From: Octopus sinensis
Taxonomy: Eukaryota
NCBI RefSeq assembly: GCF_006345805.1
Contig: NC_042997.1
Location: 118,854,001-118,918,000, forward strand
Length of the DNA: 64,000 bases
Reading direction: 5' to 3'
Shown: positions 11,420 to 53,215 of the stretch, piece after piece
Numbering within the stretch: the stretch's first letter is position 1
Layout: each line of letters opens with the position of its first letter
Program-made: the position numbers and the translations under genes
The notes under the pieces: generated by a model
What the model saw: only the letters and a program-made list of their open reading frames with translations
What the model was told of the DNA's origin: nothing
Databases searched by the model: none

Positions 11420-11454
<35 letters not shown>

Positions 11455-14117: not shown

Positions 14118-14175
14118 TTTGAGAACGTACGTTTCAAGATTAGTCAAAACAACACTTCTATCATCAGCTCAGAAA
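14118..14175 (-). ncRNA. Minimal type I hammerhead ribozyme, copy 2
   Basis: Identical to the 13573-13630 motif, 545 bp away. Confidence 0.7.
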
Positions 14176-15074
14176 TTCCTTGGTTTGGATTTGGAAACAC
14201 TGAAAATAAGAACATACCCTTTCGAAGATCTGCTCGTAACTAACAGTGCCAACAAATTCAAATAAGCAAGCGAAGAATGTTATTTTACATATTTCTTGTA
14301 ACAAAGTCGTATATCTATTTTAAGGCGTTACTTGACTTCTAGTTAGAAACTTAAAATCTTAACATCTCGAAGAAATATCGTTACTGGTCGTTGAATTATC
14401 GTTCTGGATATGTCGAGATTGGATAAAAATATTCAATGACATTTGAAACGAAGCCATATTGTGTTATGAATCATCAGTGCAGCTTAATTACAGCGTTAAT
14501 CAAAAATAATTGGTATCAGTAACACATCATGTTGAGATTAGAGAATAATTTAAAAATAAGAAATAACAACTACTATTAAACCCTTCAAAATCTAAGAAAT
14601 GACAGAAAAGAGAGATAAAAAATATTTGAAAACACTAATGAATTCTTTTTTCTTTTTGTTTTTCCCTCGTAGAGAATGACAAGCTATCTTAACTCTAAAA
14701 CAATAGGAATGTAGTTCCCGGAAATTTGTTGAATGAATTAAACTACTTGAGAAGAGTAATTAATGATTTGAAACAATCATTATTCTTTAACTAAAAAAAT
14801 ATGGCGATTATAAAATTAACATCGCTGTTTACGTTATACGTAGTATAAGCGTACATAAAACTGGGTGAGTAAAGAGTTTCCTTTGATATAGGGTGTTTCA
14901 GAATCCGATCATATTAGAACATGTTTTTTCGATGTGGAAATTGGTAAACAAAAACCATATATCGATGTATGTGACGCGTTAATCTATGCGTTTATAGAGT
15001 ACAAATGTATTATTCTTATACAAGAATGTTGTTGACAATGACTTCGAAGTTTCAGCCTGCTTAGCTAAAAAGTT

Positions 15075-15698: not shown

Positions 15699-16370
15699 GC
15701 CTTCAAGGCCTTTGAGACTTGAAGACTTGTACAAGTTTTGTTTTTTTGAAGCTTAAGACTTTTCATACACCCCATGTATATATAAAGAACGAGAGTGATA
15801 AGGGAGATAGATTGATATATTGAGAGATACTTTCATAAATCGAAATTACAGAAACCGAGACGTATATAGTTGTGCTCCTTAGCGTTTGCTGTCTAACTTT
15901 GTAACCCTGCTTGTTTTTCCCTTGTTTTCCTTGCAGGTACTAGTTTAAAACGTTTACCTGTTCGTGTGTTACAGATCGCTAAATCAAGCGAGATGCCAGG
16001 ATGAAATACTTAAGTGACTGAAATCATTTAAGGTGTTTTCCCTGAAAGGCCGCAGCCCCGTATATGAAGCAAAAAAAAAATGTAAAACATGATTATTCAA
16101 GTTGTGAGGAAATATTGAATGAAGGGGTAATTGATGGATAAATTAGTAATGACATTCTGATAAGGAAAATCAATAAATAATATTGTCAGAATGGGTTATT
16201 GATTTGGGTTACCGATTTAGGTACACGACCCACAATCTTCATGCGGATCGATAAATGGCAATAACCTCTGGGGTATTTGAACATAAACAACCCAGAGCAT
16301 TTGAATGCTCTTTTCAATATATTTAATCTAATTTAAAATATTATATTATGTCTGTATATTTTTTAACCAT

Positions 16371-16693
16371 GGAGGCGCAATGGCCCAGTGGTTAGGCAGG
16401 CGGGACGCGGTCATGGGAGTGCGTTTTCGATTCCCAGACCGGATGTTGTGATTGTTTATTGAGCGAAACACCTAAAGCTCCATGAGGCTCCGGCAGGGGT
16501 TGGTGGCGAACCCTGTTGAACACTTTCACTACAACTTCCTCACACTCTTTCTTCCTGCTTGTGTTGTACCTGTATTTCGAAGGGCCAGTCATGTCACACA
16601 CTGTGTCACGCTGAATCTCCCCGAGAACTACATTACTCGTTAATTTCCCGAGCAGGCTGGAACCCATGTCGTCGTAACCGACGGAGTGTCACG
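16371..16693 (+). mobile_element. tRNA-derived SINE family A with 12-bp TSD
   Basis: Head GGAGGCGCAATGGCCCAGTGGTTAGG...TTCGATTCCC; TSD ATTTTTTAACCA at 16358-16369 and 16694-16705. Confidence 0.88.
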
Positions 16694-16802: not shown

Positions 16803-17015
16803 AAGGCGGCGAACTCGCAGAATCATTAGCACGCCGGACAAAGTACATCATTTCATCCGTATGTACATTCTGAGTTCAAATGCCGCCGGAGTCGACTTTG
16901 TCTTTCACGCTTACGGAGCCGATAAAATAAGTATGAGATGAGCACTGGGATCGATTTAACCGATATAGCACCTCATCCAGAATTGCTGATTTTGTCACAA
17001 AATTTGAACCCAATA
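16803..17015 (+). mobile_element. SINE family C (short tail)
   Basis: AAGGCGGCGAACTCGCAGAATCATTAGCACGCCGG head, GAGTTCAAATGCC B box, tail TTGTCACAAAATTTGAACC. Confidence 0.8.
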
Positions 17016-17171
17016 TTTCGGCAGGTAGAAATAAGCCTATGCCTTTTAGTTAATCCCATATAAAACAGATAGTCTCTGGATTTGTTCCCTGTATATTTCG
17101 ACATAATTAATACAAAGCTTCAATTTCCCACCAAATAGCTGTTTCAGCCTATTATTAACATACCAAATATT

Positions 17172-17362
17172 GACTTCAAATTGTCGCAGAAGTCTAGCAA
17201 TTTCGAAGAGAGAGTTAGTCGATTACATCGACCCTAGCTCTTGACTGGTCCTCCGACAGGATAAAAGGTGGAGACGACCTCGGCGGAATTTGAACTCAGA
17301 AGTGCAGACGGCACTAAGCATTTTGCCTGGTGAGCTAACGATTCTAGCAGCTCACCACCTTA
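17172..17362 (-). mobile_element. SINE family C (short tail)
   Basis: Reverse complement of the family C head and core. Confidence 0.75.
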
Positions 17363-17550
17363 TGCACACCGAATGTTATGTTTAGTTTCTATTTACTTCA
17401 GGTTTTCTCAGATTTTTCGTCACACATCTGTGACCTGATCAATATATATATTCCCCCTACCATATATTTCCTGATATTTTCCCAGTACAATTCTGTATAT
17501 AATATAGTTTAATTCGCTCTTTCAGTTTACTGCACTTAATATATTAACTG

Positions 17551-17842
17551 TGGATGCACATGGCCAAGTGGTTAGAGCAGCGGACACGCGGTCGAGGGAT
17601 CGCGGATTCGAATCTCAGACCGGGCGATGTATGTGTTTATGAGCGAAACACCTAAGCTCTACGCGGCTTCGGCAGAAGGTAATGGCGAAAGTCTGCTGAC
17701 TCTTTCGCCACAACTTTCTCTCACTCTTTCCTCCTGCATCTTGACGCTCACGGTGTCCCGTCTAGGTGGGGAACCTATACGCCAAGAAACCGGGAAACCG
17801 GTCCTATGAGCCAAGAGTGGCTCGAGAAGGAACAAACAACAA
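17551..17842 (+). mobile_element. tRNA-derived SINE (family A variant, AAC tail)
   Basis: TGGCCAAGTGGTTAGAGCAGCGG A box and GGATTCGAATC B box; flanked by an AATATATTAA duplication. Confidence 0.8.
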
Positions 17843-22203: not shown

Positions 22204-23509
22204 CTGTGTGTACGTGTATGTGTATGTCTTGTGTGAGTGTGTGCCTCTGTGTCCCTGTGTGTACTTAATACGTATGTGGATTGAAGCAATTTGAATTAAA
22301 AACTTAAGAGTATTGATATATCATTTCTCGAGACTTGAAATGATTAAAACGAGAACATTAACACCAAAAAGTTACAATAACAACATCGATTACAACATAA
22401 GTAGCAACGTAAAAAAACCGCTGAGTAGCCACTTTATGGGTAAAGTCTGTTCTGTAATAACAGAAATCTACTACCTTATACTGTCTCTGGTATTTTTATA
22501 TGAAAACCCTTCTCTCTCCTAAAAGTACGTCTTTATTCAGTAAAAAATAATTATTTTCTTAAATAATCAATATATACACTAATGAAAGAGAAACTTAAGC
22601 GGTAATTCTCATATCAACGGTTTCTTCCCTTGTTTGGAATTCATATTAAGCGGTATTGCTATTCGAAAGTAAGTGCAAGTGTATTTTTTCTATTACATGG
22701 GATAGTATTCAAAAGTGGTTTAAAGAGAAATCGGTTTCGGTATTTTCTTTCTTCTGTAAAACTTCCTTACTTAAAACAGGTGATAAAATTTATTCCGGAA
22801 AGCATAATTCTATACGAAATTTTTTCCAGTAGAATGCGATTCCTCTTCATTGGTGTAAATTTCATTTTATGGCAGCATACACTAATATTTAGACTGTAAA
22901 TCAACCAACGAGCGGCCAGAATTGTTGGCGCACCGGATAATGTGGTTTGCAGCCGTCCTTGAGCTTCATCCCTTTTAGGACCAATGAAATATATACCTGT
23001 TGATGTAATCGACTTAGTCGCTCTACCAAAATTACTGGCCTTAGGCCAAAATTTGAAATTAATATTTCGACGACATATCTTTAAGCGAAAACGTAATTTT
23101 GTATATTTATTTCCACACATATTTATTTCCAACTTAACCTTATGAACTTTCTAAACTCTCTAACGAAGCCCAGAGGTACACCCAAGTACCTTAATCTTAT
23201 CTACCAAATACCTCAGTTCACTGAAGGGATGGGAGTAAATTGGGGTACTATGGTCTCTTGACTGAAACAGCTATAAGATACTATTCTATTTTCCATGCTC
23301 TACGTTATATATTTTAATAATTTCTGGTATTTTTATTTTTTATATATTATATATGTAAAACATAAGTTATACATGTATGCATATTGTTGTAATTGTGTTT
23401 TAAAAAATAGATAAAGAAGGGAGATTGATGCTTTCCTGAGAGTGGTGCAGGCTGCTTATCGGTGTTTCAGGTCCTATGTGGAACAAATAATTGTGTTGTG
23501 GAGTATATC

Positions 23510-23892
23510 GTGGCACTGTGTCGGTTACGACGACGAGGCTTCCAGTTGATCCGATCAAGCGGAGCAGCTTGCTCGTGAAATTAACGTGCAAGTGCCTGAG
23601 TACTGCACAGACACGTGTACACTTAGCGTAGTTCTCGGGGAGATTCAGCGTGACACAGGGTGTGACAAGGCTGGCCCTTTGAAAAACAGGTAGAACAGAA
23701 ACAAGAAGAAAGAGTGAGAGAAAGTTGTGGTGAAAGTATACAGAGGAGTTCGCCACAACACCATGCCGAGGCCTCGTGGAGCTTTAGGTGTTTTCGCTCA
23801 ATAAACACCCACAACACCCGGTCTGGGAATCGAAACCGCGATCCTATGACCGCGATTCCGCTGCGCTAACGACTGTGCCATTGCATCTCCAC
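23510..23892 (-). mobile_element. tRNA-derived SINE family A, full length
   Basis: Reverse complement closely matches the 16371 and 60196 copies (GGTTTCGATTCCCAGACCGGG...CTGAATCTCCCCGAGAACTAC...GTCGTCGTAACCGAC). Confidence 0.88.
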
Positions 23893-24342
23893 TGCGGAAT
23901 ATAATTGAGCAAATAAGAGAACATAAACTCCAGCTGCTTCGTAATTTCATCGACTTGAATATATCAATTCATAGGGTTCACTGAAATACATTCAGGAATA
24001 GCTTGAAAATCTATGGGATCCCGAACAGTTGTATCAACATGTTTAAGTTTCAGTAAAGGAATTCGCAATGATGCGTGAAGACGAGCAGGAGAGCCGATGA
24101 TATGCTCAAAAGTAAGACGGTGGGTTAGTAGAAACGTTAGCACGCCGGGCGAACTGCTTAGCGGTATTTCGTCTGCCGCACATGTGTTCGTGAAGTAAGA
24201 ATTGCTGTTTCGTGGTGTTAATATTGTTAACAACTGTTGTTTCTTGTTAAACTGTTGAATAACTTAACTGTTGGAGTTTTCAATTGAAAACACTTAGTGC
24301 TTGTGGTAGCACGCGTTGTTCATTCCCCCTTTGGGGGGAAGA

Positions 24343-25871
24343 ATGTCGTCTAGCATGGAGCCTACCGTTGGAGCAGAAATACTTGTTTCTCCTGTTGAGA
24401 GGAGGAAATACATGTCCGGCGAGGAGCCAACTACAGACAAGGAAATAGGGGTTTCCCCCGCTACAAGAAGGAATAGCAGAGAGGATAATATATTTGATAT
24501 TTTTGGAGATGTGTCTGAGAGCTCGTCAGAACTTTCACCAGAAGAGTTTCCGACTTTGCCAGAGAACAAAGGCATTGTGTCGAAGAGAATAATTGAGGTG
24601 CCTAGCATCCAGATAGAACCAAAAAATGGAAAAAAAAGTTTTGCGTTGGCTGCTGGGGGTGGAACCCAGATACTGTCGACGAATAAAAGCGAAATTATGA
24701 AATACAGCAAAATGATGGAAATAAATGACAACAGTGTGAAAATTGAACCTCCGCAAAAGTTATTACAGGAAGAAAAGCAAAAAACAATAATTTTCAAAAC
24801 ATATTGTCTACAAAATAGAAAAATTGAAAGAATGTCAGAAGAGAAAATAGAAAAGTGCTTAAAGCCAATATTGGGCGACGTAGTATTTCTGAGAAGAGGA
24901 AAAAAATTCGGAACGGTGGAAGTAAGGTTCACCAATAAAGAAATAGCACACAAGAACTCAGTGGAAACGTTGAAAACGAACGACGTGGAGTTAATACCCT
25001 ATTATATGGGGATGAGGACGTCGCGAATAAAAATTACAAGGGTCCCGCCAGAGGTCGAACCTATGTGGTTGTTGGCGGCAGTCCTAATCAAAGAGGTAGA
25101 AAAAATTACTCTCCTCCAGGCTACCGCTACGGAAAACCCACGCTGGGATGGTCAAACAATTAATCTTCTCATTCAAGCGGACCCTAAAATAATTCAAACA
25201 ATTCCTGAGACAATTGAGGTATGGGAGGAGAACCTCGTGGTGTTTGTTGAGGGCCGAAAAGCTCGATGTTTTTTATGTGGTCAATTAGGCCACATTCGAA
25301 GGAACTGCAAGGAAAATGAAGAAGAGGAGGAAGAGGAGAAAAAAGACAAAGAGGAAGAAGATAAAGAAGAAACAGATGAGAAAAAAACAACAAACAAAAG
25401 AAACATACAACCAGCAACCCAGCCGAGAGCGGCGACTACTACAGAACAACGACCAAAAAAGACTGCCAGAAGAGAAAAAGAAGAAAAGGCATAATAGCCG
25501 TATACACTAAAGATACTGAGCTCATGAGAGACATTCAACTCATAAAGACTGTAACAAAAATTGATAACCTTTCAGAGGAATTTATCAATTACGACATATA
25601 TGAAGTCTCAAATAAGACTTATAGAATTCTACAAAATAAGTACAGAAAGACTGTATCTTCATTGAGATTAGATTTTAACAAGTCGATATTTCATGGATTA
25701 CCAGCTCCGATCCCGCGAGAAAAGGAAAAGGTGGAGATTCCCCCTCCACCTGATAATTCTGTGTCGGTGGTGAGACGGGATTTTGACAAATCTATTTCCC
25801 AAGACCGTCCACCTCCGACCCTGGATAAAAAAAAGGTGGAGAGTCCCCCTCCACCGGACAATCCTAATTAA
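24343..25871 (+). pseudogene. Tx1 ORF1 (gag-like nucleic-acid chaperone, CCHC zinc knuckle), one frameshift near 25470-25490
   Basis: ORF 24316-25494 contains CFLCGQLGHIRRNC (CX2CX4HX4C) and an acidic/basic tail. ORF 25524-25871 extends upstream in frame (KGIIAVYTKDTELMRD), consistent with a frameshift in the purine run. Confidence 0.85.
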
Positions 25872-25882
25872 ACAGGTAAGTG

Positions 25883-28800
25883 ATGGCTATTCACATTGGT
25901 TGTTTAAATGTTCATGGCCTGTTGTCAAGCTGGAAGCAAGGACGCTCTCTGAATGACATCAGGTCGAGAAATTTGGATGTAATTGTTGCAACGGAAACCC
26001 GGGTGAAGGGGCCAAGAGATCTGCTCCCCCTCCTGAACGGCTACGAGAAATACGTTTCTCCGAGTCGGGCGGGAGGTGGGGGTGGGGTGTTGGTCCTACT
26101 AAAAAGAAACCGGGTAGCCGAGAAAAAGTTGGTTTTTTCTGACCCAGAAGGCAGGCTGGTCGTTCTCGACTTGACATTCAGTTGTGGCAAGACAATCAGG
26201 CTGGTCGCTATTTATGCACCAAACATTATTGGCCCGCAAACTGAATATTTTCGTGGCCTAGGAAAGTTCCTAGCCACGTCGCATTCACTAGTAGTGTTAG
26301 GAGACTCTAATACAATATGTGCAGCACACACAGATTGTGTTGGCTCAAACTCGAACATGAACAGAAAATGTAACACAGGCTTTCGGGATCTGCTAAGTCA
26401 ATTTCAGCTAGCAGATCCATATAGGTTGGAGCACCCGAACACTCCACAGTGGACGTGGTCAAATAGTGACGGGTCTACCAGAACATATCTAGATAGGATT
26501 TTAATTAGAGAAAAATATAAGTCCATAGTTGAGTGTCCACAGATTTTTCTAGTCAGCTACAGTGACCACAAGATGGTTACCTGTAAACTGACGGTAGATA
26601 AGTTGCATAGACAGGGATCTGGCTACTGGAAACTCAATACGTCCCTTTTGGCGATTGAGGAGTACAGAAAGCGGATCAAGATGTTAATACAGAGGGCATT
26701 AACAGGTACCATCATTAATAACAAATGGTGGTACGCCCTAAAAAGAGCCATCAAATATGAGTCTATTAGGTTTAGCATAAGTTTAGCTAAGAAGGGACGT
26801 AAAATAGGAGATGGTCTAGTTAAGGAACTAGAAGAAGCCTGGAGGACTGGTAATACAGACCAAGCGAGGGTGAAAAGACTGGAGTTAAACCAGCATCTTG
26901 AAGCCCACCACATGGGAAGTATTACCAGAGCTAAGTTACGTGCAATGGGAAGTGAAGGAATCAAAGCCGCTGGATGGGCCCGAGTGGTGGAAGCTCGGCA
27001 AGGAAATAGTTCCTCTATTCGGTCTTTGACGAATCAAAATGGTGTCTTGATAAACGAACCCGAGAAAATGTGTGAGGTCTTTCGGGAGTACTTCGCCCAG
27101 CTGTTCGGGGGTGACGGCGGTCCTGGTGGTGGGAGAGCCCTCGAGGACTTTCTTACCGGGCTGCCGTGCCTCTCGGGGTCGGATGCGGAGTCTTGCGAAG
27201 GGCCAATCACACTTGAGGAGGTGATGGAGGCTTTGGCCGATTGTAAAGCGGGTAAGTCACCGGGACTTGATGGTCTTCCGTACGAGCTGTATAAATGTAT
27301 GCCAGACTTGTTCGGGCAACTACTGACTGACGTGTACGCGAACTGGAAACAGAATGGGTTTATCCCCAGATCTGTGCGCCGGGGAGTAGTGACGTTGGTC
27401 AGAAAGGACCCGGACAAGGGGGACGTTCTAGAGAATTTCAGGCCCATCACTCTGTTAAACGCAGAAGTGAAGATTTTGGCCAAGGTTCTAGCAAAAAGGT
27501 TGGCGCGTGTCGCGAATGGTATATTCGGGGAGGCACAGACATGTGCCATCCCAGGCAGAACCATTCAGGATACCCTCCATCTTATTCGCTATACCATAGA
27601 GAGGTTTGGTAATAAATCTGGCAAAGGTGGGGCATTGGTGCATTTGGACCAGTCTAAAGCTTTTGATAGGGTTGACCATCGATACCTAGCGACTGTACTT
27701 GCGCGGTTTGGCCTGGGCCTTGGCTTCCTCAGGTGGTTTATCGCTTTGTACCACAACATTGACTCGATAGTTCGGGTGAATGGTTTCCTTTCGAAGCCGT
27801 TCTGCATCAGACGCTCGGTTCGTCAAGGATGTCCGCTTTCACCACTTTTGTATGTGATGGCTCTCGAGCCATTACTGCAAAGGTTGAGTGGCATCCCGAG
27901 AGAACCAGGACTAGAGGAGTTTGTTACGGCTTTCGCGGATGATATCACTATCAGTGTAACCACAGTGGTACGCCTACGTGAAGTAGGTAAGACTATTGAG
28001 GCTTACGAGGAGGTAGCAGGAGCAAAGATTAACCGGGAAAAGTCGGTCGGCTTGCAGCTCGGCACCTGGGTTGGCAAGTCGATGCCTTCAGACAGTGTTG
28101 TTAGGCGCTGGACGGAGGGACCGGTTAAGTTGCTGGGAGTCTGGTTTGGACCAGGCCTCCAGATAGAGAAGAACTGGACGGAGGTATTGAGCAGGGTGGC
28201 TGCAGTAGTCAAGACTTGGTCTTGGCGGTGGCTATCCCTGAAAGGAGGGCGGAAGTGGCCAATGTGTTTATCGCATCGGTCATTACCTACCGCCTGACTG
28301 TCGTGCCCTGTCCGGATTCGTGGTTGATCAGGTTGGAGAGACAGCTCTTTCGCTTTTTGTGGAAGGGCAGGTCGCCACTTGTGAAACGCTCTGTCTGCTG
28401 TCAAAAGCCTTTAAATGGAGGTTTAGGGATGCCTTGGTTAATGATGCGCAGACATGCGTTGAGGTTGAGGCACCTCTGGATTCTCCTGGATAGTGAACGG
28501 GTGTGGTCTCCGCTGGCCAGACAAATGTTCCCTGAGTTCAAGAGTTTTTGCGAACAGGAAGCCTGGTGTTCTCGTAGACCGAGGTCGAGTGAGTGGCATA
28601 AAGAGTGCCGTAAGGCCCTCTTGCTGTTCCGGCGCTCGGGCAACGCCAGCGGTGGGGGTTCCACACGGATTTTATATAGTGGGTTGGTAGAGTCTGAATG
28701 CGACGATGGCCTGGGGTCGACTCTAGGTCTCGGATTTATTCAACTGGACAGCTTGTTTCATCGTACATTCGGGTTGAGAACGTTGGACAACTTCCAAAAG

Positions 28801-29283
28801 TCCTTAACCTGGCAATGCTACAGAGGTGCCTTGCCCGTTTGGGATAAGCTCGCAAGACATGGTAAACGTCAGTCGCCGACCTGTCCAAGATGCGGTGGGG
28901 ACAGGGAAACCGTCCCTCACGCTATTGTTCAGTGTCCGGAGATAACTGAAATGTGGGCTTATGCTGAACATCTGTTGTCCGGCGAAGGAAGAGTACGGCT
29001 GTCGACTGAGTCAATTATAAAAATTGACCCACCGGGAGTTCTAACGAACGAAGGTAAGAATTGTTTTCTCACGGTTGTAGCAATAGCAAAAGCGGCTGTA
29101 TGGAATACTAGGATAAAAGGAATTAAGACAGGCAACTTTATCTCTGGTGACAATTTACGATCCTTTTTTTCTTTTCATTTGAAAAAGAAACTGTGGCTGG
29201 AGAAGAGGTGTCTGTCAGAGTGTACGTTCCAAAAGAGATGGAAGTATGTTGCACGAGTGTTGTGCGTGCAAGGAACCGTGTGA
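25883..29283 (+). pseudogene. Tx1 ORF2: apurinic endonuclease, reverse transcriptase and C-terminal zinc finger; one frameshift near 28245
   Basis: APE motifs GCLNVHGL, ATET, IYAP, GDSN, LDRI, SDH; GYWKLN linker; RT motifs KSPGLDGL, NFRPITLLN, LDQSKAFDRV, RQGCPLSPLLY, FADD; CPRC..ETVPHAIVQC. ORFs 25880-28297 and 28216-29283 join at LSLKG/RAEVAN. Confidence 0.93.
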
Positions 29284-30299
29284 ATAGACGAGGAAAAAAA
29301 AAAAAGGAAAAATAAAAAGGTATCAGCGGTAGATCGGGGCTTGTGGGATCGGAGCGTAACTTGATCATCGCTTCATTTGTATTGTTTTTGTACTGTGTAT
29401 TCCATTCGATTTTTATGTATTGTATTTTATTTTTGATGTCACATTTATGTAAAATCATATCGATTCACTGATCCCATCAGTTGTACTGTCCATATCTATG
29501 TTTGGCCCCCGGTGGGCAATAAAGAAATTGGTATTTCGTCTGCGGTCATGTTCTGAGTTCAAATTCCGCCGAGGTCGACTTTGCCTTTCATCCTTTCGGG
29601 GTCGATTAAATAAGTACCAGTTACACACTGAGGTCGATATAATCGACTTAATCCGTTTGTCTGTCCTTGTTTGTCCTCTCTGTGTTTAGCCCTTTGTGGG
29701 TAGTAAAGAAATATATATGCTCAAAAGTGCAACCGCAGGGAGATAGCGTTCCTACTTGCTGTTTCTACTCCACATAACGACTGATTTCATAATGTGGAAA
29801 GCAATGGCTAGCACCAATTTTTTGAATAACGTGGGCACTGCGCAAACTGACGGATTTGCATTTCGTAGACGAGTTGGTATCACTAAGCACTACTATATAT
29901 ATATATTTACATACACACAGGAGTAACGCAGTTTGCAGCAGGCGTTGGATATTTAGAAATGTTTTTAATTCTTTCTTAAACTGCAAATAATATAAATTTT
30001 AAGAAAAAATAAAGTTGTCTGAAGTTTTACATTATACTGCAATATTTCACACAAAACCCAGCTAGCAACATTACTTCTACAAGGAACTGGTTTTAACTTC
30101 GAAATATTGAAATACTAAGTAAAACTACAAGTATTGTATTATTTTTTATAACTTAAATTCCTTGAAATAACCAAACATATATGCATACATATACATTTAT
30201 AAAGGATTAAAGGCCAGTTTCCTGGATTCTGTAGAAACTGTAGGGGACGCCGATTGATCGCATGGTCCCTCAGTTTCTCCAGCTGCGTGGATTGGAAAA

Positions 30300-30469: not shown

Positions 30470-30471
<2 letters not shown>

Positions 30472-31942
30472 GGTGAACGCGTACATCGCGTCCATCATCT
30501 ACTACCGCCTGACCGTCGTACCTTGTCCCGACCCTACCATCACCAAACTAGAACGCATCCTCTTCCGCTTCTTGTGGAAAGGATGCGTCCCGATGGTCAG
30601 GCGATCCATTTGCTGTCAACACCCGTTAAAAGGAGGGCTGGGCATGCCGTGGTTGATGATGCGCAGACACGCGCTGAGACTGCGACATCTCCGGCTCTAT
30701 GTAGACGACGGTGAACAGGTGTGGTCGCCGTTTGTGAGGCACGCATTCCCGCAACTTGTCTCCATGACCGAACTACAGTCGTGGATCAAAAAGAGGCCGA
30801 AGAAGGGCGAATGGCACCGCGAGTGTCGCGTTGCTCTCAAGCAACTCTGCCGTCCCGGGTCGACCTTGAGTGACTTCAACACAACCAAAGCATTCTATAG
30901 GGGATTAGTGGAGGGGAGGTACGACGACGAGCTCGGGGCAAACCTGGGCGTCGACGAGGAATACCTGACCCGCCTGTTTCAAACGACTTTCGGCCCGGGA
31001 CCTATGGACAACTTCCAGAGATCCCTGGCCTGGCGGTGCTACCGAGAAGCGCTACCCGTTCGGGATAAGCTCTATAGGCATGGCTCGAGAAACACGGGGC
31101 CGACCTGCCCGAGATGCGGGCAGAGCGACGAAACCGCTCTGCACGCAATCGTGCAGTGTCCAGCAATTTCCCACCTGTGGGCTTATGTCGAACGACTGCT
31201 GTCACGTGTGGGACGTGTCGGTTTATCAGCCGAGTCTATCGTTAATATCGTCACGCCTCCTTCCTTCAAACGGGAAGGAAGAGCTATTTTTATCATACTT
31301 GTGGCTATGGCGAAAGAATGTATCTGGTGGACGCGTCTGAAAGGATTAGAGACAAACACTTTCCTCTCTGGTCAATCTCTCATCAACTTCTTCAAGTATC
31401 ACTTGAAGAAAAAAGTGAGAGTAGAGAGGCAAGTTTTGTCTAGTGAATGTTTTAAAAAAGATGGGTGAATGTAGCAAGGATGGCACGTATGAATGACGAA
31501 GCCACCTTGACTATGATTCTATGAACCGTAAAAATTAATACAGAGAGTTGCTTATTTGCAAAAAAAAAAAGAAATATAACATGTGACTTCATTGACCGAG
31601 GTTACCGTGGTCTTTTCCGTAGGCTTTTCTTTCCACGGGTAAACCTCACCTGTCCTCCCCTTTACACTTCATATTGACATTTCTGTGATAACGATCCCTA
31701 TTGATCAATTATTTTTTTCCTCTCCCCCCTTTTTTTAACCCCCCCTTTTTTTGTCCTTTCTCTCCTTTTACGATCCCTTTTGATCGACCCCCCCTTTTTT
31801 ATTTTATTTTATTTGTTATTTTATTATTATTATTATTATTATTATTTTATTTTTTAAATTTTTTTTTTAAACCTTCAAAAGAAAAGCTCTACCTTGTAAT
31901 TTGTTCTATCTGTGTGCAGCCCTGTGTGGCTAATAAAGAAAC
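30470..31942 (+). mobile_element. 5'-truncated Tx1-clade LINE (second family) inserted in (TCTA)n
   Basis: 332-aa ORF homologous to the ORF2 C-terminus of the 24-29 kb element (GGLGMPWLMMRRHALRLRHL, CPRC..ETALHAIVQC). 3' end AGCC-CTGTGT-GGCT-AATAAAGAAAC; (TCTA)n on both sides (30433-30470, 31945-31981). Confidence 0.92.
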
Positions 31943-31943
31943 A

Positions 31944-31981
<38 letters not shown>

Positions 31982-32066
31982 GATTCAGAAGAATATGATA
32001 CTTAAGTGGAGGCACCAGAATTTAGTACGGTATCATCCATACAATTTCAAATTAAGGTGATAAAAG

Positions 32067-32471
32067 TCAAAATAAGCAACAGAGGTAATGCAGTACGATC
32101 GTTTCATGTGACTCCCTTTAATAGAACAATGCAATCATTTCATTACATCAATTTAAAATGTAGAGCAATCTTCAGCTACACAAAGACATAGAATTTAATT
32201 AAATTAGAAGAACACATTAGAATGAGTTACAACAACTATGATGTTGTTGGTAAAACATGTTCTTTGTCTATCTCTTTATCATCTTGGAGATTTTAGTTAA
32301 AATTATATTAATGTGTCCATCTAATTTAAATAAATTCTATGTCTTTGTGCAGCTGAAGATTGCTCTACATTTTAAATTGATGTAATAAAATGACTGTATT
32401 GTTCAATTAAATGGAGTGGCATGAAACGATCGTGCTGCATTACCTCTGGATATCCTTGTTGCTTATTTTGA
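32067..32471. mobile_element. MITE/foldback with ~140-bp terminal inverted repeats
   Basis: 32067-32208 is the reverse complement of 32320-32471 (e.g. TGTAGAGCAATCTTCAGCT / AGCTGAAGATTGCTCTACA). Confidence 0.75.
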
Positions 32472-32477
32472 TATCTA

Positions 32478-32495
32478 TCAATCAATCAATCAATC

Positions 32496-32582: not shown

Positions 32583-33471
32583 CGTGTGTATAGGTGCACT
32601 ATGGCCGAATACTTAAGAAGTTGGGGTTGCCAATCATTAGTTCTAGAGTTATTTCCAACTGCGTAGCAAATCGTACCCTATTCTCCAGGTGAACACATCT
32701 CTTATCATTCAAATCAAATAGACGGGACCTGTATAGAAGCTCCACCTAATGAGAAAAAAGCATTTTTAAGAGTGAGTTAGAGATTGAGCTGAACGGTAGA
32801 TGATTCAGTGTTATTACCAACCACATTTTCACGAAAACAGCAAAAAATTTAATTAGAGAAAAACTATTAAATAAAGATGTAGCATTCAATAAATGAATTT
32901 CTTTTATACCTCGTTTGTTACACAACGTATTTGATACGCAACATATGCATAACATCAATCACAATAATTTCAGTAAAATCCTCCTAAGTCTAATAACAAA
33001 AGGGATATTTGTAATAAATATCAGGTATTCCCAGATAAATATCGCAGTATATTACGATGTTGTGGTATATTCTATTATTCCCAAGTATAATTATGTAGTG
33101 AAAGCGCAAATTTGATGAAAGCGAAGCAGTACAAAATTAATACAAATTCTTTTTTATATATATATATGTATTTCGGTAAAGAAAAAAATGTGAAGTCTTC
33201 ACAGAAATTACATTTCATATCGATATTTTCATTCGATAGATATTGCTATTACAAAGATCCATTCTCTGTGGAAGGTATTACAAAAAAATGAATGCACGCA
33301 TAATTCATAAAGCGTATTGCCAAAGAAAACCTGGCCTGATTTGAATTCATGTTGTATATATACGTTTAAAACATCGCAAATCTCACATATTTCGTGCGAC
33401 GCTCTCAAAATCTTACTCCATCACAGAGATAAAGAAAGATGTCTTCTTTTATAGTGATTATACTTGTAATT

Positions 33472-33590
33472 GGTTACGGCCATATCACCTTGAAGGCACC
33501 AATTCTCGTCCGATCACCGAAGTTAAACAACGTCGAGCCTAGTTAGTACTTAGATGGGTGACTGCTTGGGAAACCTAGGTGCTGTAAGCG
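33472..33590 (+). rRNA. Full-length 5S rRNA-derived sequence (retrocopy or SINE3 head, probably not a functional rDNA unit)
   Basis: 119 nt GGTTACGGCCATATCACCTTGAAGGCACC..CTCGTCCGATCACCGAAGTTAAACAACGTCG..TTAGTACTTAGATGGGTGACTGCTTGGGAA..GGTGCTGTAAGC follows the metazoan 5S consensus. Solitary and flanked by TSD ATTATACTTGTAAT. Confidence 0.9.
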
Positions 33591-34219
33591 TCACATATTT
33601 GCCCTTGTGGAAAAATTTATAACTATTATACTTGTAATGAATACCAGAGCGATTGGATATTGGACAACACAAAAGATTGTAGCAAATCGAAATGCTTGTT
33701 TATTGTAAGTAGTAAAAAAACTATCGTTTCGAGTACTTGTGATCATAGGAGTAAAAAAAAATGAAATCTGGTTTTCGGAAAGTATAATGATGGGTTAACA
33801 GAATTTGTAGTGTAGTGGACGAATTAACATCTGGTAATTATTTACGCGATTATATATACTGAGTTCAAACCCCAACAGGGTCAACTTACATTTTACCTTC
33901 CAATGTCTATGAAATAAGTACGTTGTTATTATCAAGTATATTTCCCCCGCAAATCTGAAGTTTAATACTTATATTTTCAACAACGGATGAAGTAGCAAGA
34001 TGCAATGAATGAAACACGTTATTAATTTCCTCTCAGCTATGTCGTTCAAATATTAACGTTTCTTTCAGCTTTCTTGATTTACAGTATGTGTTACATAAAA
34101 TATTTAATGAATGACGTACTACCAAAAGTATATGTGTATATTAAGTGAAGAACATGCAATGTCGCACATACCTCAAGAACATGGATGTTCCCTAGTGATT
34201 AGAATAGAACTACGAGAGA

Positions 34220-34287: not shown

Positions 34288-34660
34288 TGTGTGGTAAGTA
34301 GCTTGTTTACCAACCGCATGGTTCCGGGTTCAGTCCCACTGCGTGGCATCTTGGGCAAGTGTCTTCTACTACAGCCTCGTGCCGACCAAAGCCTTGTGAG
34401 TGGATTTGGTAGACGGAAACTGAAAAAAGCCCGTCGTATATATGTATATATGTGTGAGTGTATGTACATGTGCCTGTGTTCGTCCCCTTAGCATTGCTTG
34501 ACAATCGATGCTGGTGTGTGTACGTCTCCGTCACTTAGCGTTTCGGCAAAAAGAGACCGATAGAATAAGTCCCGGGGTCGAGTTGCTCGATTAAAGGCGG
34601 TGCTCCAGCATGGCCGCAGTCAAATGACTGAGACAAGTAAAAGACTAAAGACTAAAGACA
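34288..34660 (+). mobile_element. SINE family B within (TAA)n
   Basis: GTGTGGTAAGTAGCTTG..GGTTCAGTCCCACTGCGTGGCA..internal TA/TG..CATGGCCGCAGTCAAATGACTGAGACAAGTAAAAGA. Confidence 0.88.
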
Positions 34661-36330: not shown

Positions 36331-36510
36331 AATAATATATCAATAATAATGATAATAACAAAATGATGAAGTAGATTGACATGTAATTATTGAACCTGTG
36401 GAAGGCACGCTAGATGCCGAAATATCGTTCAACTAATTTCACATGTTAACTATGGTACTCTTCTATTTTTTTCTGTAATAATAATAATAATAGTAATAAT
36501 AATAATAATA

Positions 36511-37060
36511 AATCCTTCCTCTTATAGGCACAAGGCATGAAATTTTAGTGGAGGGGGCCATTCGATTAATTTGACCCAGTACACAATTGATACTTATTTT
36601 ATCGACCCTAAAAGGATGGAAGGTAAAGTTAACCACGGTGGAATTTGAACTCAGAACATATAGACGGGGGAAATGCTGTTAAGAATTTCCTCCGGGATGC
36701 TAACAAATCTGCCAGCTCAGCGCTTTTATAATACTAATACTAATACTAATAATAACAACAACAATAATGATAATAATAATAATAATAATATAATAATAAT
36801 AATAATAAATCCTTCCTCTTATAGGCACAAGGCATGAAATTTTAGTGGAGGGGGCCATTCGATTAATTTGACCCAGTACACAATTGATACTTATTTTATC
36901 GACCCTAAAAGGATGGAAGGTAAAGTTAACCACGGTGGAATTTGAACTCAGAACATATAGACGGGGGAAATGCTGTTAAGAATTTCCTCCGGGATGCTAA
37001 CAAATCTGCCAGCTCAGCGCTTTTATAATACTAATACTAATACTAATAATAACAACAACA
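36511..37060 (-). repeat. Identical tandem duplication (period ~297 bp) of a family C SINE plus its TAA flank
   Basis: 36511-36760 equals 36808-37057 across the SINE. Confidence 0.9.
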
Positions 37061-37066
37061 ATAATG

Positions 37067-37109
<43 letters not shown>

Positions 37110-37226
37110 TGATGATAATGATAATAATAATAATAATATGATAATAATAATGATAATAATAATAATAATTATAATAATATTAATAATAATAATAATAATG
37201 ATAATAATAATAATAATTATAATAAT

Positions 37227-37265
<39 letters not shown>

Positions 37266-37290
37266 TATGATGATGATGTTATTAATAATG
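37030..37290. repeat. (TAA)n microsatellite
   Basis: Direct reading; gives the poly-N and poly-I ORFs. Confidence 0.95.
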
Positions 37291-37295
37291 ACAAA

Positions 37296-37490
37296 AGTTT
37301 CAAATTTTGGCAAAATACCATTAAGTTTAGTGGGACGTGCTAACTGATTGCGCTTAACTGGGATATCATTTCATCGATCTCCAAAGGACGAAAGGCGAAG
37401 TCGACTTCGCTGGCATTTGAACTCAGAATACAAAGAACCGAAAGAAAAAAAAAAAAGAGCCGCGCGGCATTTTGTCTCATCACTATCGGT
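37296..37490 (-). mobile_element. Diverged SINE family C
   Basis: GAAAGGCGAAGTCGACTTCGCTGGCATTTGAACTCAGAA core in reverse orientation. Confidence 0.65.
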
Positions 37491-40158: not shown

Positions 40159-40310
40159 ATAGTAAGAAAAGGGAGAAGAATTTCGATTATCAAGACATGG
40201 TGAGTTGTAATGTAAAAAAAAATATATATATATGAAAGAAAAGAAGTAAAATGAACACAGTTTAAATAGTTTTAATATAATTTTTGACATATTTAATGAG
40301 TAAAAGTGCA

Positions 40311-40467
40311 TTGTGTGTCGACCGGTTTCACTTTCGCTAGTCAAGACATTGAAATTGTTGTAATTTCGCATTTTCTTAACATGGACTAAGATATTCTTTG
40401 GAAAATACGAAATTACAACAATCTCAATGTGATGATTAGCGAAAGCGAAACCGGTTGACAAACACAA
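40311..40467. repeat. Inverted pair (~58-bp arms) of minimal hammerhead-like motifs
   Basis: 40311-40368 is the reverse complement of 40408-40467. Consensus TGTC-(C)TGATGA-CTAGC-GAAA-GC-GAAAC-CG-GTC-GACA. Confidence 0.6.
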
Positions 40468-40489
40468 TACTCTGTCACTGAAACAAGTA

Positions 40490-41932: not shown

Positions 41933-41944
41933 CTGTCATTCTTC

Positions 41945-42885
41945 TCATTAGTCTGGCAGATGAACAGGGGCGTGATTTACTCGAGCCTGAAAAGATATGT
42001 AAGGCCTTTCATCAACAATTTGCCCGACTGTTCGGGACAACTGGTGGTTCAGAAGGCAAAGTGGACGTTAGTGCCTACCTGCATAGCTTGCCACCACTCT
42101 CAGCGACAGAGGCGGAGTGTTGTGAAAGAGCCGTCACAGCCGCGGACGGACGGGATGCGATGGCAGGCTGCGCGGGAGACAAGTCGGCAGGCTTGGATGG
42201 TCTGCCCTACGGACTTTACTTTCATACGTTAGACTTGTTTAGAGGTATCTTGGCAGCTCTCTACTGCAACTAGCACCAAAACGGGATTATCCCCGTCTCT
42301 GTAAAGCGAGATGCGCCGGCACTACTAAAGAAATATCCAAACAAGTAGAATGTCATAGATAACTTCAGGCCCATCACCCTTCTCCATGCAGATTTGAAGA
42401 TTTTGGTCAATGTGTTAGCCAAGATGTTTGCGCTTGTCATAGGGGAAACTGGCCGAGAAGACGCAAACGTGCGCTGTGCCAGGTAGACGTATCCCTGACA
42501 ACCACCATCCGATGCGCTGCATCAAACACAGTGTAGTTTGGATCACTCGAACGCTTTCGCTAGGGTAGACCATCGCTACTTGGAGGCTGTCCTTAGAACG
42601 GCTGGCTTAGGTCCGTCTCCCGCGGTAGAATCGCTGCTTTATACAGCACCATCCGCTTGGTAGTTCGCTTAGATGATCATCTGTCCAGTCCATTTGACAT
42701 CATGCGTTCGGTTCGTCAACGATACCCCTTCTCGTCGCTTTTGTGCGTATTGACTTTTGAATCACTACTGCGGTTGCTGTCGACGCTGAATGGCATATGC
42801 GGACGACGTCACCGTCATTGTGTCGAGTCACAGGCATATAGACCTGGTCGTCGAGACACTAAGAGAATGCAAAGCGGAAAACGGA
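41945..42885 (+). mobile_element. Degraded internal Tx1 ORF2 (RT) fragment
   Basis: YLHSLPPLSATEAECCERAVT, DKSAGLDGLPYGLY, NFRPITLLHADLKIL, AFARVDHRYL, MRSVRQRYPFSSLL and AYADD parallel the 27100-28000 region of the intact element. Confidence 0.85.
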
Positions 42886-43476
42886 GAAATATTTATTGCC
42901 ACCCGGCAACGAACAGCAAGCACTAGTACTAGACACGTCAACGCCGGGTCATAGTGCTGGTAATTATTATATATATATTGAAACATATACTTCTAATGAT
43001 ACGTATATGAGTACATATAAATATATTCAACCATATATGAGTGTATGTACATACACACACACGTGTATGTGCATGCTCGCATATATTTAAATATCTGTGT
43101 GTGTGCATGTGTGTCTACGTTTGCATATATATATATATATATGTATGTATGTACATAAGTTATGTTTAGTCTTCGAAAAACGTGGTATATTAATAAGCTG
43201 AAGTAAAAACTTTAATGTTTAGGATTATTTTAAAAGCAATGAATATTATTATAACTAAGATGGATGATTGTGAGTCTACAACAGAACACCTTATTAAATG
43301 CATCGCTTCTTCATAAAATATGTATGCTGAAGAAAGTCGTAAAGTTGAATAAAGAAATAACAATTTAGCGTCCTCAATCAGGTTGTTTCTATTTTTAATA
43401 ATAGTTTATGCATTATTTACTGCTGTGTGACCAAGTTATATTTCATAAATACCTATTGAAAGTGACTCTTTTACTT

Positions 43477-43835
43477 CTTTCAGTCATTTGACTGCGGCCA
43501 TGTTGTTGCACCGCTTGGAGTCGAGGAAATCGACCCCAGGACATATTATTTGTAAGCCTAGTACTTATTCGATCGGTTTCTTTGCCGAACCGCTAAGTTA
43601 CGGGGACGTAAACACGTCAGCATCGGTTGTCAAGCGATGTTGGATATGGGGTACAAACACAGACACACAAACACATACACATATACATATATACGACTGT
43701 CTTCTTTCAGATTGCATTTACCAAATCCACTCAGAAGGCTTTGGTCGGCCCTTGGCTATAGTAGAAGACACTTGCCCAAGTTTCCACGACGCAGCGGGGC
43801 TGAACCCGGAACCATGCTTGTTATGCAAGCTAGTT
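43477..43835 (-). mobile_element. SINE family B
   Basis: Reverse complement of the family B head and tail. Confidence 0.85.
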
Positions 43836-44239
43836 AATTTCATTTTATTTGCCATAAAGGCAGTATACAGAGTAGCTGCGGGCTGGATAAAACACATTAA
43901 TGAATGAAAACGAATTAAAAAGAATAAATGAGAGACGAAACCCAACACCCGCTGATTGGATTTTCCTCGAAAACATAGATTCCTTTTTTAAAAAATTCAA
44001 TGACACTTCAAACCTCTTACAAGAAGGAGGCACTAAAACCTCTTACTTAACATGTTTTTTTTAATTAAAAAACACACAATTGAGGTTATAAACCACTACA
44101 TATAATGCAATAAGATGAGGTTTCAAACCATCTAACGAGGCTTTTTCACCTCCTACACATCGATACATCCATCAATATACCCATCATTATCATCCCACCA
44201 TTTCCCACGCTTGACTCATGTACGACATGTAAGTCGTGT

Positions 44240-44940: not shown

Positions 44941-45450
44941 ACACACACACACACATGCACACATATATACTAGACTGCCCGTGACCCGTTAGACCACCTG
45001 GAAAGTCTGAGTCCCCCAGCAACGGTGTTTTGTTTTATGAGATTTTTCCCTTCCAGGTTATTTTACATGCTTTGAACGAATGCGACATCGAAATCACACG
45101 TAAACGGCTCCTTTCCCAGGAAAACGAAAGATTTGGCTGCTATTTCTTTCACACCCTGCTAACACGTAACAGGTATTTCGGGTCGTTTATCGCAAACAGC
45201 TGTTACGTGAGAGCAGGGCGTACAAGAAATAGCAGCGAAATCTTTGGAACTGAGATGCGTTGAATGCACACGAAAAAATATTTGTTATGATATTCCCTTC
45301 GGGTGATCTTTGGCTTTGACTCTCAGAACTGTCATTCGGATCAGCTGGTTTTGTTCGTTAATTTCCGTAATGTTTTATTTATATAATTTTATTTTAAAGT
45401 GATAGATGTATGAACGTCTATATGAAATGGACGTATTTGTGTATGTGTGT

Positions 45451-46572: not shown

Positions 46573-46805
46573 ATTAACTCCTCTCTACCAATGTAAAAAC
46601 GGTGATGGTGCGAAGAAACACACGACGAATCGCCAAACTTAAACATGGAACTATATAATAATACTACTGGATAGTACTGGGCAATTCTGTAATCTACCAC
46701 GTTCCTAACGGAATATACCATAAGTATATATATAATTGTATTATATATATATATATATATATATATACAAACATACATATATCTATATCTATCTATCCAT
46801 GTATG

Positions 46806-46855
<50 letters not shown>

Positions 46856-47042
46856 ATTATATATATACTTATGGTATATTCCATTAGGAACGTGGTAGAG
46901 TACAGTATAAAACGTGTCCACCTTCAGAATTGCCCAGTACTATCCAGTAGTATTATTATATAGTTCCAAGTTTAAGTTTGGCGATTCATCGTGTGTTTCT
47001 TTGCACCATAACCCTTTTTACATTGTGTAGAGAGGAGTTAAT
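46573..47042. mobile_element. Foldback: ~165-185-bp inverted arms around a (TA)n spacer
   Basis: 46573-46738 is the reverse complement of 46853-47042; ends read TTAACTCCTCTCT / AGAGAGGAGTTAA. Confidence 0.75.
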
Positions 47043-47060: not shown

Positions 47061-47146
47061 ACGCATATTTGCCATTTGAATATGGCTAACCCCTAAGGTA
47101 GCATCCTCCATTAGGGATTAGCCATATTCAAATGGCAAATATGCGT
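47061..47146. repeat. Near-perfect hairpin: 36-bp arms (35/36 match), 14-nt loop
   Basis: ACGCATATTTGCCATTTGAATATGGCTAACCCCTAA ... TTAGGGATTAGCCATATTCAAATGGCAAATATGCGT. Confidence 0.9.
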
Positions 47147-48757: not shown

Positions 48758-48795
<38 letters not shown>

Positions 48796-48798
<3 letters not shown>

Positions 48799-49298
48799 AC
48801 TTATAAACAAGGGCTAAAGAAGATTATTTCTATGCCAATATGCTGATAAAAGACTTTTAAATCGTCAATTTCCACATATTATTTACTCGCTACAGAAAAC
48901 ACGTACGGACTGGTAACCACTATAAGCTGTAGTGGAGAGCAGTTCACACGTGTACTGAGGCTAACCAGTATTTTATATTTAGATATATCTGGGGTACTTA
49001 TATGTACTAATGATTTTTACTTCGGCTTTTTTCCATGGGCGCATGTAAGTATTTCATTTATGTCTTTTCGTATTTTCTACTAAAGAGCAAAAAATCTATT
49101 ATGAGATTAATTCCGAAATTGATTCAACATAGAAATAACGAACTTAAAAAAAAATATTTGGTTGGCAAGCTTTCCTCGATTTCAGCTCTACGTGTTTTCT
49201 GTAGCGAGTAAATAATATATGGAAATTGGCGATTTGAAAGTCTGTTATCAGCATATTGGCATAGAAATAATTTTGTTTAGCCTTTATTTAGAAGTTGT
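48796..49298. mobile_element. MITE with ~110-bp terminal inverted repeats
   Basis: 48796-48905 is the reverse complement of 49189-49298 (TTATTTCTATGCCAATATGCTGATAA / TTATCAGCATATTGGCATAGAAATAA). Confidence 0.8.
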
Positions 49299-49390
49299 TT
49301 ATAATTTTAACGTTAAACGTACTTTAATATGCTGCCACATTTTTTGATGAAATTTTTTTCTGTAAAAAAAACATCATCCTATATTAGTAG

Positions 49391-51689: not shown

Positions 51690-53215
51690 CTAATTGTCAC
51701 AGAAACAAATGTCAATATGACCAGGATAAATTATGTGATATATGCAGTAGCTTCTGTAGCCACAAAACAAGCTGGTGACACCTGAAACCGATCCAAACAA
51801 GAGTATTACCACCCAAACAAATCCTGTGGATAAATAATATCTAGAAACAAAATACAAAATTAAAGAAAGGTTCTGTCAAGCCTTAATGAAACTAGTAGAC
51901 AATCAATACTACTAAACAACAAGAAGAGATGAAAAATACTACGTAAATACAAAATTACAGAACAAGGTATACTTGAGGTGAAAGAACAGCTACAGCAGGA
52001 TATCCTCACCATCGTACAAAGAATTTGCCGGTAGGGGAAACGCCAACGCTTCTTTGAACAAAACAAACAATTCAACTCCCTTCCCCAGATATTTTTCCAA
52101 GAACTTGGTTAAAATAAAATAGAGCAGAAGTGGAAGAATTTTGGAAAGTAGTATCGTTGGCGAAGGAACAACCTCAGAAAAGATCTATCAAAATAACAAA
52201 CACAGTACCTGAACAACTCTATAACAACTGAAGAGGTCACCGAGGCACTGCAAAAACTAAACATCTGGAAAGCACCCAGGTACGACAAGATCCCCAAATT
52301 CTGTTTAAAATATCTAACACGTATACATAAAACGCTGGCTGAGAAATTTAATGAAATACTAGCAGAATGCCTGAATGGCTCACAGAAAGGAAAGCTATCC
52401 TAATTCTCAAATCCACTGAAACTGCAAACCCACAAAATCACAGACCAATAACTTTTCTCTCTATAATTTCAAAGATTTTACTGCAATAATATCGCAGATA
52501 ATGGGCAAGCATTTGGAAGAAAACGACCTGTTTCCAGAAGAGCGGAAGGGATGCTGCAAGAGCTCATTGGATGTAAAGATCAGATATTGATCAATAAAGT
52601 AATAACTGTAAACCGACATAGGAAAAAGAAGGTTCTAAGTATAGATTGGATCGATGATCGAAAGGCTTTTGATAGCATTCCCAATGCATGGATCCTAGAA
52701 ACACTATCCATGAACAATGTAGCACCCTAATCATAAAATATATAAAATATTCCATGTATAAGTGGCAAACAGTGCTACAGCTCCAGACAAAAGAGTGACT
52801 CATAAAAGTCAAAGCTATCCCCATTAGAAGAGGAATATTCCAGGGAGACACGCTCTCTCCACTTCTTTTCTGCTTCGCACTGACGCCATTATCTGAAATA
52901 CTAAACAGAACTGGACGTAGATACAACTCTTATAGCAAAACAATCAGCCGTCTCTTGTGTATGGATGATTTAAACTGGGTGCTGCAAATCCTAAACAGCT
53001 GGAAACATTACTACAGACAGTATATGGATTTACCAAAGAAACAAACATGAAATTTAGCTTTAAAAAATGTGCCAAAAATAACCTTGAAAAGAGAAACACT
53101 AGTTAAGAGTAACAACATTACACTGGATAAAGCAAAAGAAATACGAAAATCAAACCAAACCCAGACACAAATACGAAGTAATCAATGAACTAGATACGAT
53201 ACAACGCACAAGCAC
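51690..53215 (+). mobile_element. Degraded R4/Dong-like (RLE-type) LINE reverse transcriptase
   Basis: WKAPRYDKIP, HRPIT, WIDDRKAFDSIPNAWI, RGIFQGDTLSPLLFCFALTPLSEILN and ISRLLCMDDL, with many frameshifts. Confidence 0.8.

Follow-up and report, generated by a model that had tools for sequence, protein, structure and literature searches.

Introduction

The locus described here raises the question of how a single 5S rRNA sequence came to stand between two short direct repeats in the genome of Octopus sinensis, followed by a tail resembling that of a SINE. The stretch analysed, referred to below as the window, comprises 64,000 nucleotides of contig NC_042997.1 (positions 118,854,001 to 118,918,000); all coordinates are given relative to its first letter. 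An earlier note on this DNA had framed the choice as one between a family of 5S-derived SINEs (SINE3) and a template-switch chimera, which turned out to be the right pair of alternatives. The observation itself stood, as did its reading as a retrotransposed 5S head with a SINE-type 3' end and a target-site duplication, whereas the proposed borrowing of the tail from a local SINE family and an argument from one 5S helix did not. General background can be found in PMC4824008, PMC4758252, PMC5322556 and PMC6472339.

Results

State of the 5S rRNA sequence

A single 5S rRNA sequence was detected on the + strand at 33472-33590, matching RF00001 with 91 bits (E 2.9e-18) over model positions 1-120, compared with a gathering score of 38. 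It was the sole Rfam match in the 64-kb window to reach the gathering score. No second 5S occurred among the 87 Rfam matches at E<=1 window-wide; the remainder were miRNA and snoRNA matches that stayed below threshold and lay mostly over microsatellite tracts. The 34 nt at 33591-33624 lie between the end of the 5S and the right repeat, and the complete 5S followed by about 34 nt, as originally described, was thus confirmed.

The alignment to Rfam and the pairing revealed a full-length but decaying head. Four pairs were non-standard (2/117, 18/60, 30/47 and 31/46), position 56 in box A was A instead of the G conserved in the Rfam consensus, and position 92 was T instead of the conserved C. Altogether at least 5-6 changes were counted in 119 nt, roughly 5% visible decay, which is a lower bound because the comparison was made with the Rfam consensus. 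The internal Pol III type-1 promoter region (33521-33568, + strand) was still recognisable. With the numbering of PMC6204057 (box A 50-64, IE 67-72, box C 80-97), box A, IE and box C of a SINE3-type 5' head were all present, carrying the substitutions at 56 and 92. The head folded no better than shuffled sequences, 139 of 200 shuffles being as good. The longest open stretch in the unit was 36 codons, and the repeats are separated by 154 nt.

A T-run terminator was absent right behind the 5S, as had been noted before; the first T4 downstream was found at 33772, and a transcript of about 300 nt would be expected from the locus. The predicted Pol III transcripts of about 150 nt would consequently not have a fixed length, since the unit carries no terminator. 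Judged from its sequence, the 5S at 33472-33590 is a decaying copy and not a working gene, on account of the four broken pairs, the changed box A base and the missing terminator, and the copy is probably silent now. The CCTAG/CTAGG helix, to which the earlier note had drawn attention, is indeed paired. This pairing says nothing on selection on this copy, because four other pairs of the 5S are broken; it is most simply explained as native host 5S sequence.

Boundaries of the insertion

The two copies of the 14-bp repeat, at 33457-33470 and 33625-33638 (both + strand), were identical and could not be extended in either direction, and no third copy existed on either strand of the window. In a null set of 5,538 pseudo-elements distributed along the unmasked window, only two reached at least 11 bp in the same geometry, and these two belonged to a nested SINE cluster at about 10,710. 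The exact duplication reported earlier was therefore far beyond chance, and by its geometry it is judged to be a real target-site duplication. One extra T at 33471 (+ strand), between the left copy and nucleotide 1 of the 5S, would be an untemplated base or a 5' extension. Upstream of the insertion TTTT was located at -10 to -7, and position 1 of the duplication was A.

Two other delimitations were considered. A 23-bp duplication would require an alignment extended over three adjacent mismatches, and it was rejected because the SINE-type tail reaches precisely 33624. Taking instead a 10-nt repeat as the true duplication would require a non-5S leader of 79 nt and would leave the 14-mer unexplained. 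The anatomy supports one insertion that comprises the 5S head, the SINE-type 3' end and the target-site duplication, and the unit is very probably a LINE-made insertion of an RNA or cDNA in which 5S was joined to a retroelement tail.

SINEs and other repeats of the window

Microsatellites and SINEs were abundant in the window. At least a dozen SINE copies shared a tRNA-type head and a central core and carried three different tails, A, B and C; the core is presumably MetaSINE-like. Copies combining the head and core with these tails were located at 10371-11150, 16803-17019, 17165-17361, 36476-37440, 57035-57268 and 60009-60170, among others, the region 10371-11150 being a nest of four copies. 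The A tail matched LINE 3' ends, and several copies were inserted at AATATTT-like sites. One further SINE family was found at 34290-34650, 43465-43836, 58652-59103 and 11262-11613, its copy at 34290 being flanked by (AAT)n tracts and located some 650 nt downstream from the 5S unit, and another at 23508-23892, 60187-60593, 16363-16635 and 17519-17836.

Long inverted-repeat or palindromic, MITE-like elements were observed at 32058-32480, 46573-47042, 40299-40479, 9654-9849, 45127-45245, 47061-47146 and 48791-49303. Near-perfect local duplications were present at 13381-13733 / 13926-14278 (99.7% over 353 bp) and at 36476-37106 (99.4%, a 297-bp unit with a B-tail SINE between (TAA)n tracts); they may be either recent tandem duplications or assembly artefacts.

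Origin of the tail

The alignment to family C divided the tail into a 9-nt linker (33591-33599, + strand) and a SINE/LINE-type 3' end of 25 nt (33600-33624, + strand) related to the family-C tail. The linker mismatched the family-C consensus at 6 of 9 positions when aligned ungapped and matched one C copy at 6 of 9 with a 2-nt gap. The decanucleotide 33591-33600 was identical to 33383-33392, a stretch that precedes the left duplication by about 65-75 nt. Such an identity was obtained by chance in 2 of 4,431 cases if anchored at the junction and in 111 of 4,431 if any part of the tail may match; it could be a templated patch or chance.

The unanchored similarity of the tail was weak (BLAST E=0.56, 16/19; nhmmer E=6.5), for which reason a profile test was required. 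The mean local alignment of the tail with six C tails was equalled by 13 of 7,166 background windows and by 9 of 2,000 shuffles. The AATATTT behind the C tails was assigned to the target sequence from the left flanks of the C copies, and this fixed the 3' end of C. With a 25-column profile built from the first six C members, the tail ranked 8 of 127,952 positions, the seven positions above it being the six members and one further family member. The final profile was made of eight family-C 3' ends, anchored at the 3' end (23036-23060 on the + strand, and those at 10379-, 17011+, 17172-, 37296-, 49610-, 58567+ and 60022-, the sign giving the strand), and was scored over the same number of positions. 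The last 25 nt before the right duplication scored 16.4 bits, and none of the 127,952 positions outside the family scored as high. At lengths 20, 30 and 34 one non-member position did so, and at length 15 there were 75. Out of five offsets the match appeared only at offset 0, shifts of 1-2 nt scoring below zero, and the score fell within the leave-one-out range of the C members (8.6-28.9). When five offsets and some six tail types are taken into account, we estimate that the match stays at about 1e-3 or better, with the caveat that about six tail types were tried and that the 25-nt core was first picked after the alignment had been seen.

Against the C consensus the tail showed 7 mismatches in 25 positions, compared with 2-8 in the members themselves. 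Seven mismatches had P=1.7e-4 at 5% decay and 0.009 at 10% decay; with about 5% visible decay in the 5S, the tail is thus not a direct copy of family C. The family-C tails cited in the earlier note exist, near 23032-23060 (+) and 10407-10379 (-), and the likeness claimed for the tail held for its last 25 nt in the anchored profile, while the first 9 nt did not match unless a gap was allowed and plain BLAST gave only the E value above.

Other donors were tried as well. The A/Tx1 tail was plausible by eye, yet its score was equalled in 153 of 7,166 background windows. It failed in the anchored profile, where 346 of 127,952 positions scored as high as the tail at 25 nt. The B tail (352 of 7,166 background windows as good) also failed in the anchored profile, and six ends of two other SINE families gave local scores of 10-16.5, which is about background. 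Within the 64-kb window the tail matched no local donor closely, and no LINE carrying exactly this 3' end was found. Outside the tail, the unit had no self-BLAST match to the local tRNA-type SINEs and contained neither a tRNA-type head nor a central core.

A hairpin at a common distance from the 3' end

A 5-nt loop similar to YTTGT recurs 15-16 nt ahead of the 3' end in all three tails (A, B and C) and in the two LINE ends of the window. The corresponding loop of the 5S unit was located at 33604-33608, 16 nt before the duplication. For the comparison of stems 15 of the 16 segments examined were used; the second LINE end was omitted due to its 6-nt loop, and one of two tandem B copies was taken. 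In the 4-pair stem 80% of cells were paired, compared with 52% in shuffles. The covariation of 0.61 versus 0.22 in shuffles (0 of 500 as high), and at most 0.18 when the stem was slid, is to be read as support and not as a probability, because the rows represent few related lineages and relatedness inflates the signal. Loops closed by two G-C pairs numbered 5 of 437, with 2.3 expected, and four of these five were retroelement tails or the 5S unit. The fifth, at 9054, lay within a tRNA-like SINE head with core at 8985-9160 that had been missed by self-BLAST.

In the stem of the 5S tail one of the four pairs was broken, and a C-G pair, as in A/Tx1, occupied the position where the C consensus has G-C. 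No stable fold was found for the tail alone, 166 of 200 shuffles being as good. Because of this A/Tx1-type pairing at one stem position and the seven differences in 25 nt, the tail is regarded as a sibling of the C tail and not a copy, and the word borrowed, which had been used for it, was too strong. The shared position and loop of the hairpin point to L1/Tx1-type LINE machinery as the likely partner. In the eel system, LINE reverse transcriptases reportedly recognise such 3' stem-loops.

Neighbouring LINEs and the candidate enzyme

Outside the insertion, at 24177-29529 (+ strand), a LINE was identified with a zinc-knuckle ORF1 and endonuclease, RT and zf-RVT domains. It had an exact 14-bp duplication of its own (24163-76 / 29530-43), and its 3' hairpin followed the geometry seen in the tail of the 5S unit; an element of this kind is the proposed source of the enzyme. 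Zinc-knuckle ORF1, endonuclease, RT and zf-RVT domains were also found in a second LINE at 30470-31945. Both are putatively of L1/Tx1 type, an assignment based on domains and target preference. Relatives of the neighbouring LINE's ORF1 amounted to 6 proteins among 8,000 scored candidates, three of them from Octopus vulgaris and two from O. bimaculoides; two of the O. vulgaris proteins were 97% identical over 28-37% of the query.

The LINE at 24177-29529 sits within the head of an A-tail SINE, which has an exact 14-bp duplication of its own (24100-13 / 29715-28), and the same head motif comes after an A-tail SINE that ends at 10760 (- strand). From this arrangement, the preferred target of the LINE may lie in the head of the SINE that it mobilises. 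Further L1/Tx1-type fragments, at 30470-31945 and about 41940-42790, both begin inside (TATC)n tracts, the former also ending in one, and may belong to a microsatellite-targeting lineage reminiscent of Kibi/Koshi. A broken RT fragment at about 52200-53200 (+ strand) was unlike the L1/Tx1 copies and was judged by eye to be possibly of the R2 superfamily (Dong/R4-like); as a partner LINE it was set aside, having no 3' end in view.

The motif NNTATTT followed the LINE at 24177-29529 and five of eight C copies, and NNTAT followed the 5S unit. In a survey of 19 other elements, a clear duplication could be made out in only about 4. Duplication lengths are reported to peak at 13-15 bp in the L1 clade and at 10-12 bp in RTE (PMC6007223), and the 14-bp duplication of the 5S unit fits the former better, which favours L1/Tx1. 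According to the same source, RTE insertions are characterised by a T-stretch about 10 nt upstream and by a duplication starting with A or T and mostly not longer than 13 bp. At this one site the TTTT at -10 to -7 and the initial A fit that signature, whereas the length of 14 fits the L1 range better. The 5S unit and the LINE at 24177-29529 have in common only the hairpin geometry, the duplication length and the target motif. On balance an L1/Tx1-type enzyme is slightly favoured; an RTE or a Dong/R4-like enzyme is unlikely, the one as much as the other.

Discussion

A family of 5S-headed SINEs or a single event

The unit is given an even chance of belonging to a family, as an old copy of a SINE3-like element about 154 nt long that has a 5S head and no body. 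A master locus would have arisen when a short LINE-type 3' end came to stand directly behind a 5S gene and replaced its terminator. RNA polymerase III would transcribe this master from the internal 5S promoter, yielding an RNA that ends in a small hairpin and then about 16 nt, as do the SINE tails of the window and the ends of its L1/Tx1-type LINEs, with the hairpin presumably being what is recognised. A LINE ORF2 protein, most likely of L1/Tx1 type, would nick an AT-rich site and prime at the 3' end of the RNA, and reverse transcription would run through to nucleotide 1 of the 5S, leaving the 14-bp duplication. Other copies of the unit would have been made likewise, and the inserted copy would then have decayed. 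A tail that is a distinct variant is what would be expected if it evolved in its own master.

The same anatomy, with a small RNA and a retroelement 3' end within one duplication, is predicted by a template switch, one-off or recurrent. The LINE reverse transcriptase would start at the 3' end of an RNA from a SINE or LINE of the C/A/Tx1 tail group, copy 25-34 nt, jump to the 3' end of mature 5S rRNA and copy it whole, and the product would never become a master. There are precedents in U6-AnolisSINE2, U6-Mon-1, U6-L2 and U6-RTE, involving several LINE clades (PMC4476161). The 5S extends in full to its 3' end with few changes, the window contains one copy of the unit, and a sibling LINE outside the window could have supplied the tail as an exact copy. 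The identity with 33383-33392 could also mark a templated patch at the switch point if the junction-anchored frequency is applied, although it is unremarkable when any part of the tail is allowed. On the other side, no close local donor exists for the tail, and among 253 human chimeras the 5S/L1 class made up 10.5% and was mostly truncated and antisense (bioRxiv 10.1101/2025.02.02.635956). Since such 5S/L1-type chimeras are rare per genome, a window containing an object of this kind would more often sample a family. A chimeric origin is accordingly possible, though doubtful.

The 34 nt might instead be the 3' flank of an ordinary 5S gene, retrocopied by read-through, with the likeness to SINE tails due to chance. 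The tail has no T4, so Pol III could pass, and its unanchored scores are weak; such an origin is nevertheless improbable in view of the register-exact profile match above all non-members and of the common loop at a common distance from the end. Moreover, bivalve 5S genes are described as carrying a T-rich stretch a few residues downstream (PMC6204057), which is absent here. An event at the DNA level is the least probable origin, and a very improbable one: a fragment of a short-spacer 5S array, a local duplication or a working orphan 5S gene, in which the repeats would be spacer (a 10-nt block after the 5S and a 14-23-nt block before it). It would account for the interleaving of 33383-92 = 33591-600 with 33457-70 = 33625-38, for the match at 6 of the 9 nt preceding the 14-mers and for a TATA-like TTTATA about 24-19 nt upstream of the 5S. 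However, no 5S neighbour lies on either side or anywhere else in the window, the middles of the two repeat blocks do not align, the tail is accounted for by its SINE similarity, and the broken pairs, promoter substitutions and lack of a terminator speak against a working gene.

Returning to the 5S-headed SINE family, a prokaryotic genome collection gave no matches to the unit, a result that is uninformative on its copy number in octopus. In the literature searched, neither a description of a SINE3 from octopus nor the sequence of an octopus 5S gene or its spacer was found; Repbase, Dfam or the Zenodo library of PMC13282606 may hold the family. The label SINE/5S accounts for 0.039% (O. vulgaris) and 0.030% (O. 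bimaculoides) of the repeat-family frequencies in PMC8967140, which would correspond to about 1,000 elements per species if these are counts, and 5S-Core-RTE for 0.021% in O. bimaculoides. A newer O. vulgaris annotation lists four SINE/5S families with 9.83 Mb, including a recently active one with 7 insertions and 42,242 bp, about 6 kb each (PMC13282606). Since that family averages 6 kb, unlike the 5S unit, the labels may denote other things; in both sources they come from automated annotation of repeats that are left undescribed (PMC8967140, PMC13282606).

We tentatively propose, at somewhat less than even confidence, that the unit represents a bodiless 154-nt SINE3 family, which would be the first one characterised in a mollusc and would consist solely of a complete 5S gene with a hairpin tail of 25-34 nt, the same 3' hairpin module serving the local tRNA-type SINE tails and the L1/Tx1-type LINEs. 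If so, one short recognition signal would explain several octopus SINE families, and the module would define the minimal signal for mobilisation by L1/Tx1-type LINEs. The existence of a family would bring molluscs into the SINE3 class, provide the anonymous 5S-derived repeats of octopus and squid with a structure, help to clean up 5S gene counts and, the unit being this small, bound the signal that a LINE needs to mobilise a passenger RNA. A single chimera, though of modest interest, would capture the step from which SINE3s are believed to originate.

Comparison with known systems

SINE3 features that can be checked at one locus were present: a 5S head, a short non-coding unit, a duplication of the non-LTR type and a retroelement-like 3' end. 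The unit is a candidate member of this class, whose defining feature is repeated copies. The likeness to the class thus consists in a 5S-derived head with an internal promoter, a retroelement-type 3' end and a target-site duplication. The class includes zebrafish SINE3, OS-SINE1, AmnSINE1, HaSE3, CoeSINE5, Ped-1, SINE-1_Pmo, 5S-Sauria and the MEG families (PMC4494074, PMC5786205, PMC10946416); 5S-derived SINEs made up 2.3% of the first SINEBase release and occurred in fish, reptiles, mammals and insects (PMC10946416). The elements described in PMC4494074 and PMC10946416 come from vertebrates and insects, in contrast to the 5S unit of a mollusc, and several have a body or a bipartite RTE part (PMC5786205), whereas only 34 nt follow the 5S here. 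The tail of the unit, furthermore, points to L1/Tx1-type machinery.

MEG-RS of fruit bats is a short, nearly bodiless element that ends in a simple A-rich tail, while the tail of the 5S unit is of the hairpin type and lacks poly(A). Like the unit, it has a 5S origin, being named as a 5S-derived SINE in PMC10946416. The template-switch chimeras (U6/L1, 5S/L1, and U6/SINE of lizard and platypus) resemble the unit in having a small RNA 5' of a retroelement 3' end within one duplication; human 5S/L1 chimeras are often truncated and antisense as described, in contrast to the whole, sense octopus 5S with its very short tail. The Cassandra and Ajax TRIMs also carry 5S-derived promoter sequence (PMC10886601), yet they have two LTRs, and Ajax has 5-bp duplications, compared with one 5S and a 14-bp duplication in octopus. 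A TRIM was rejected as the identity of the unit, which lacks two 5S-bearing LTRs and has a duplication of 14 bp.

Among cephalopods, about 24,000 5S-derived loci of the giant squid were called likely SINEs (PMC6962438), and both Octopus species carry SINE/5S labels; their likeness to the 5S unit is by label only, as those sources give neither structure nor sequence. A precedent is offered by HaSE1 and HaSE3 of Helicoverpa, a tRNA-headed and a 5S-headed SINE with a common 3' end (PMC5786205), as family C and the 5S unit appear to be. Their tail is RTE-derived, whereas that of the octopus unit is a 25-nt sibling of the family-C tail and not a common copy.
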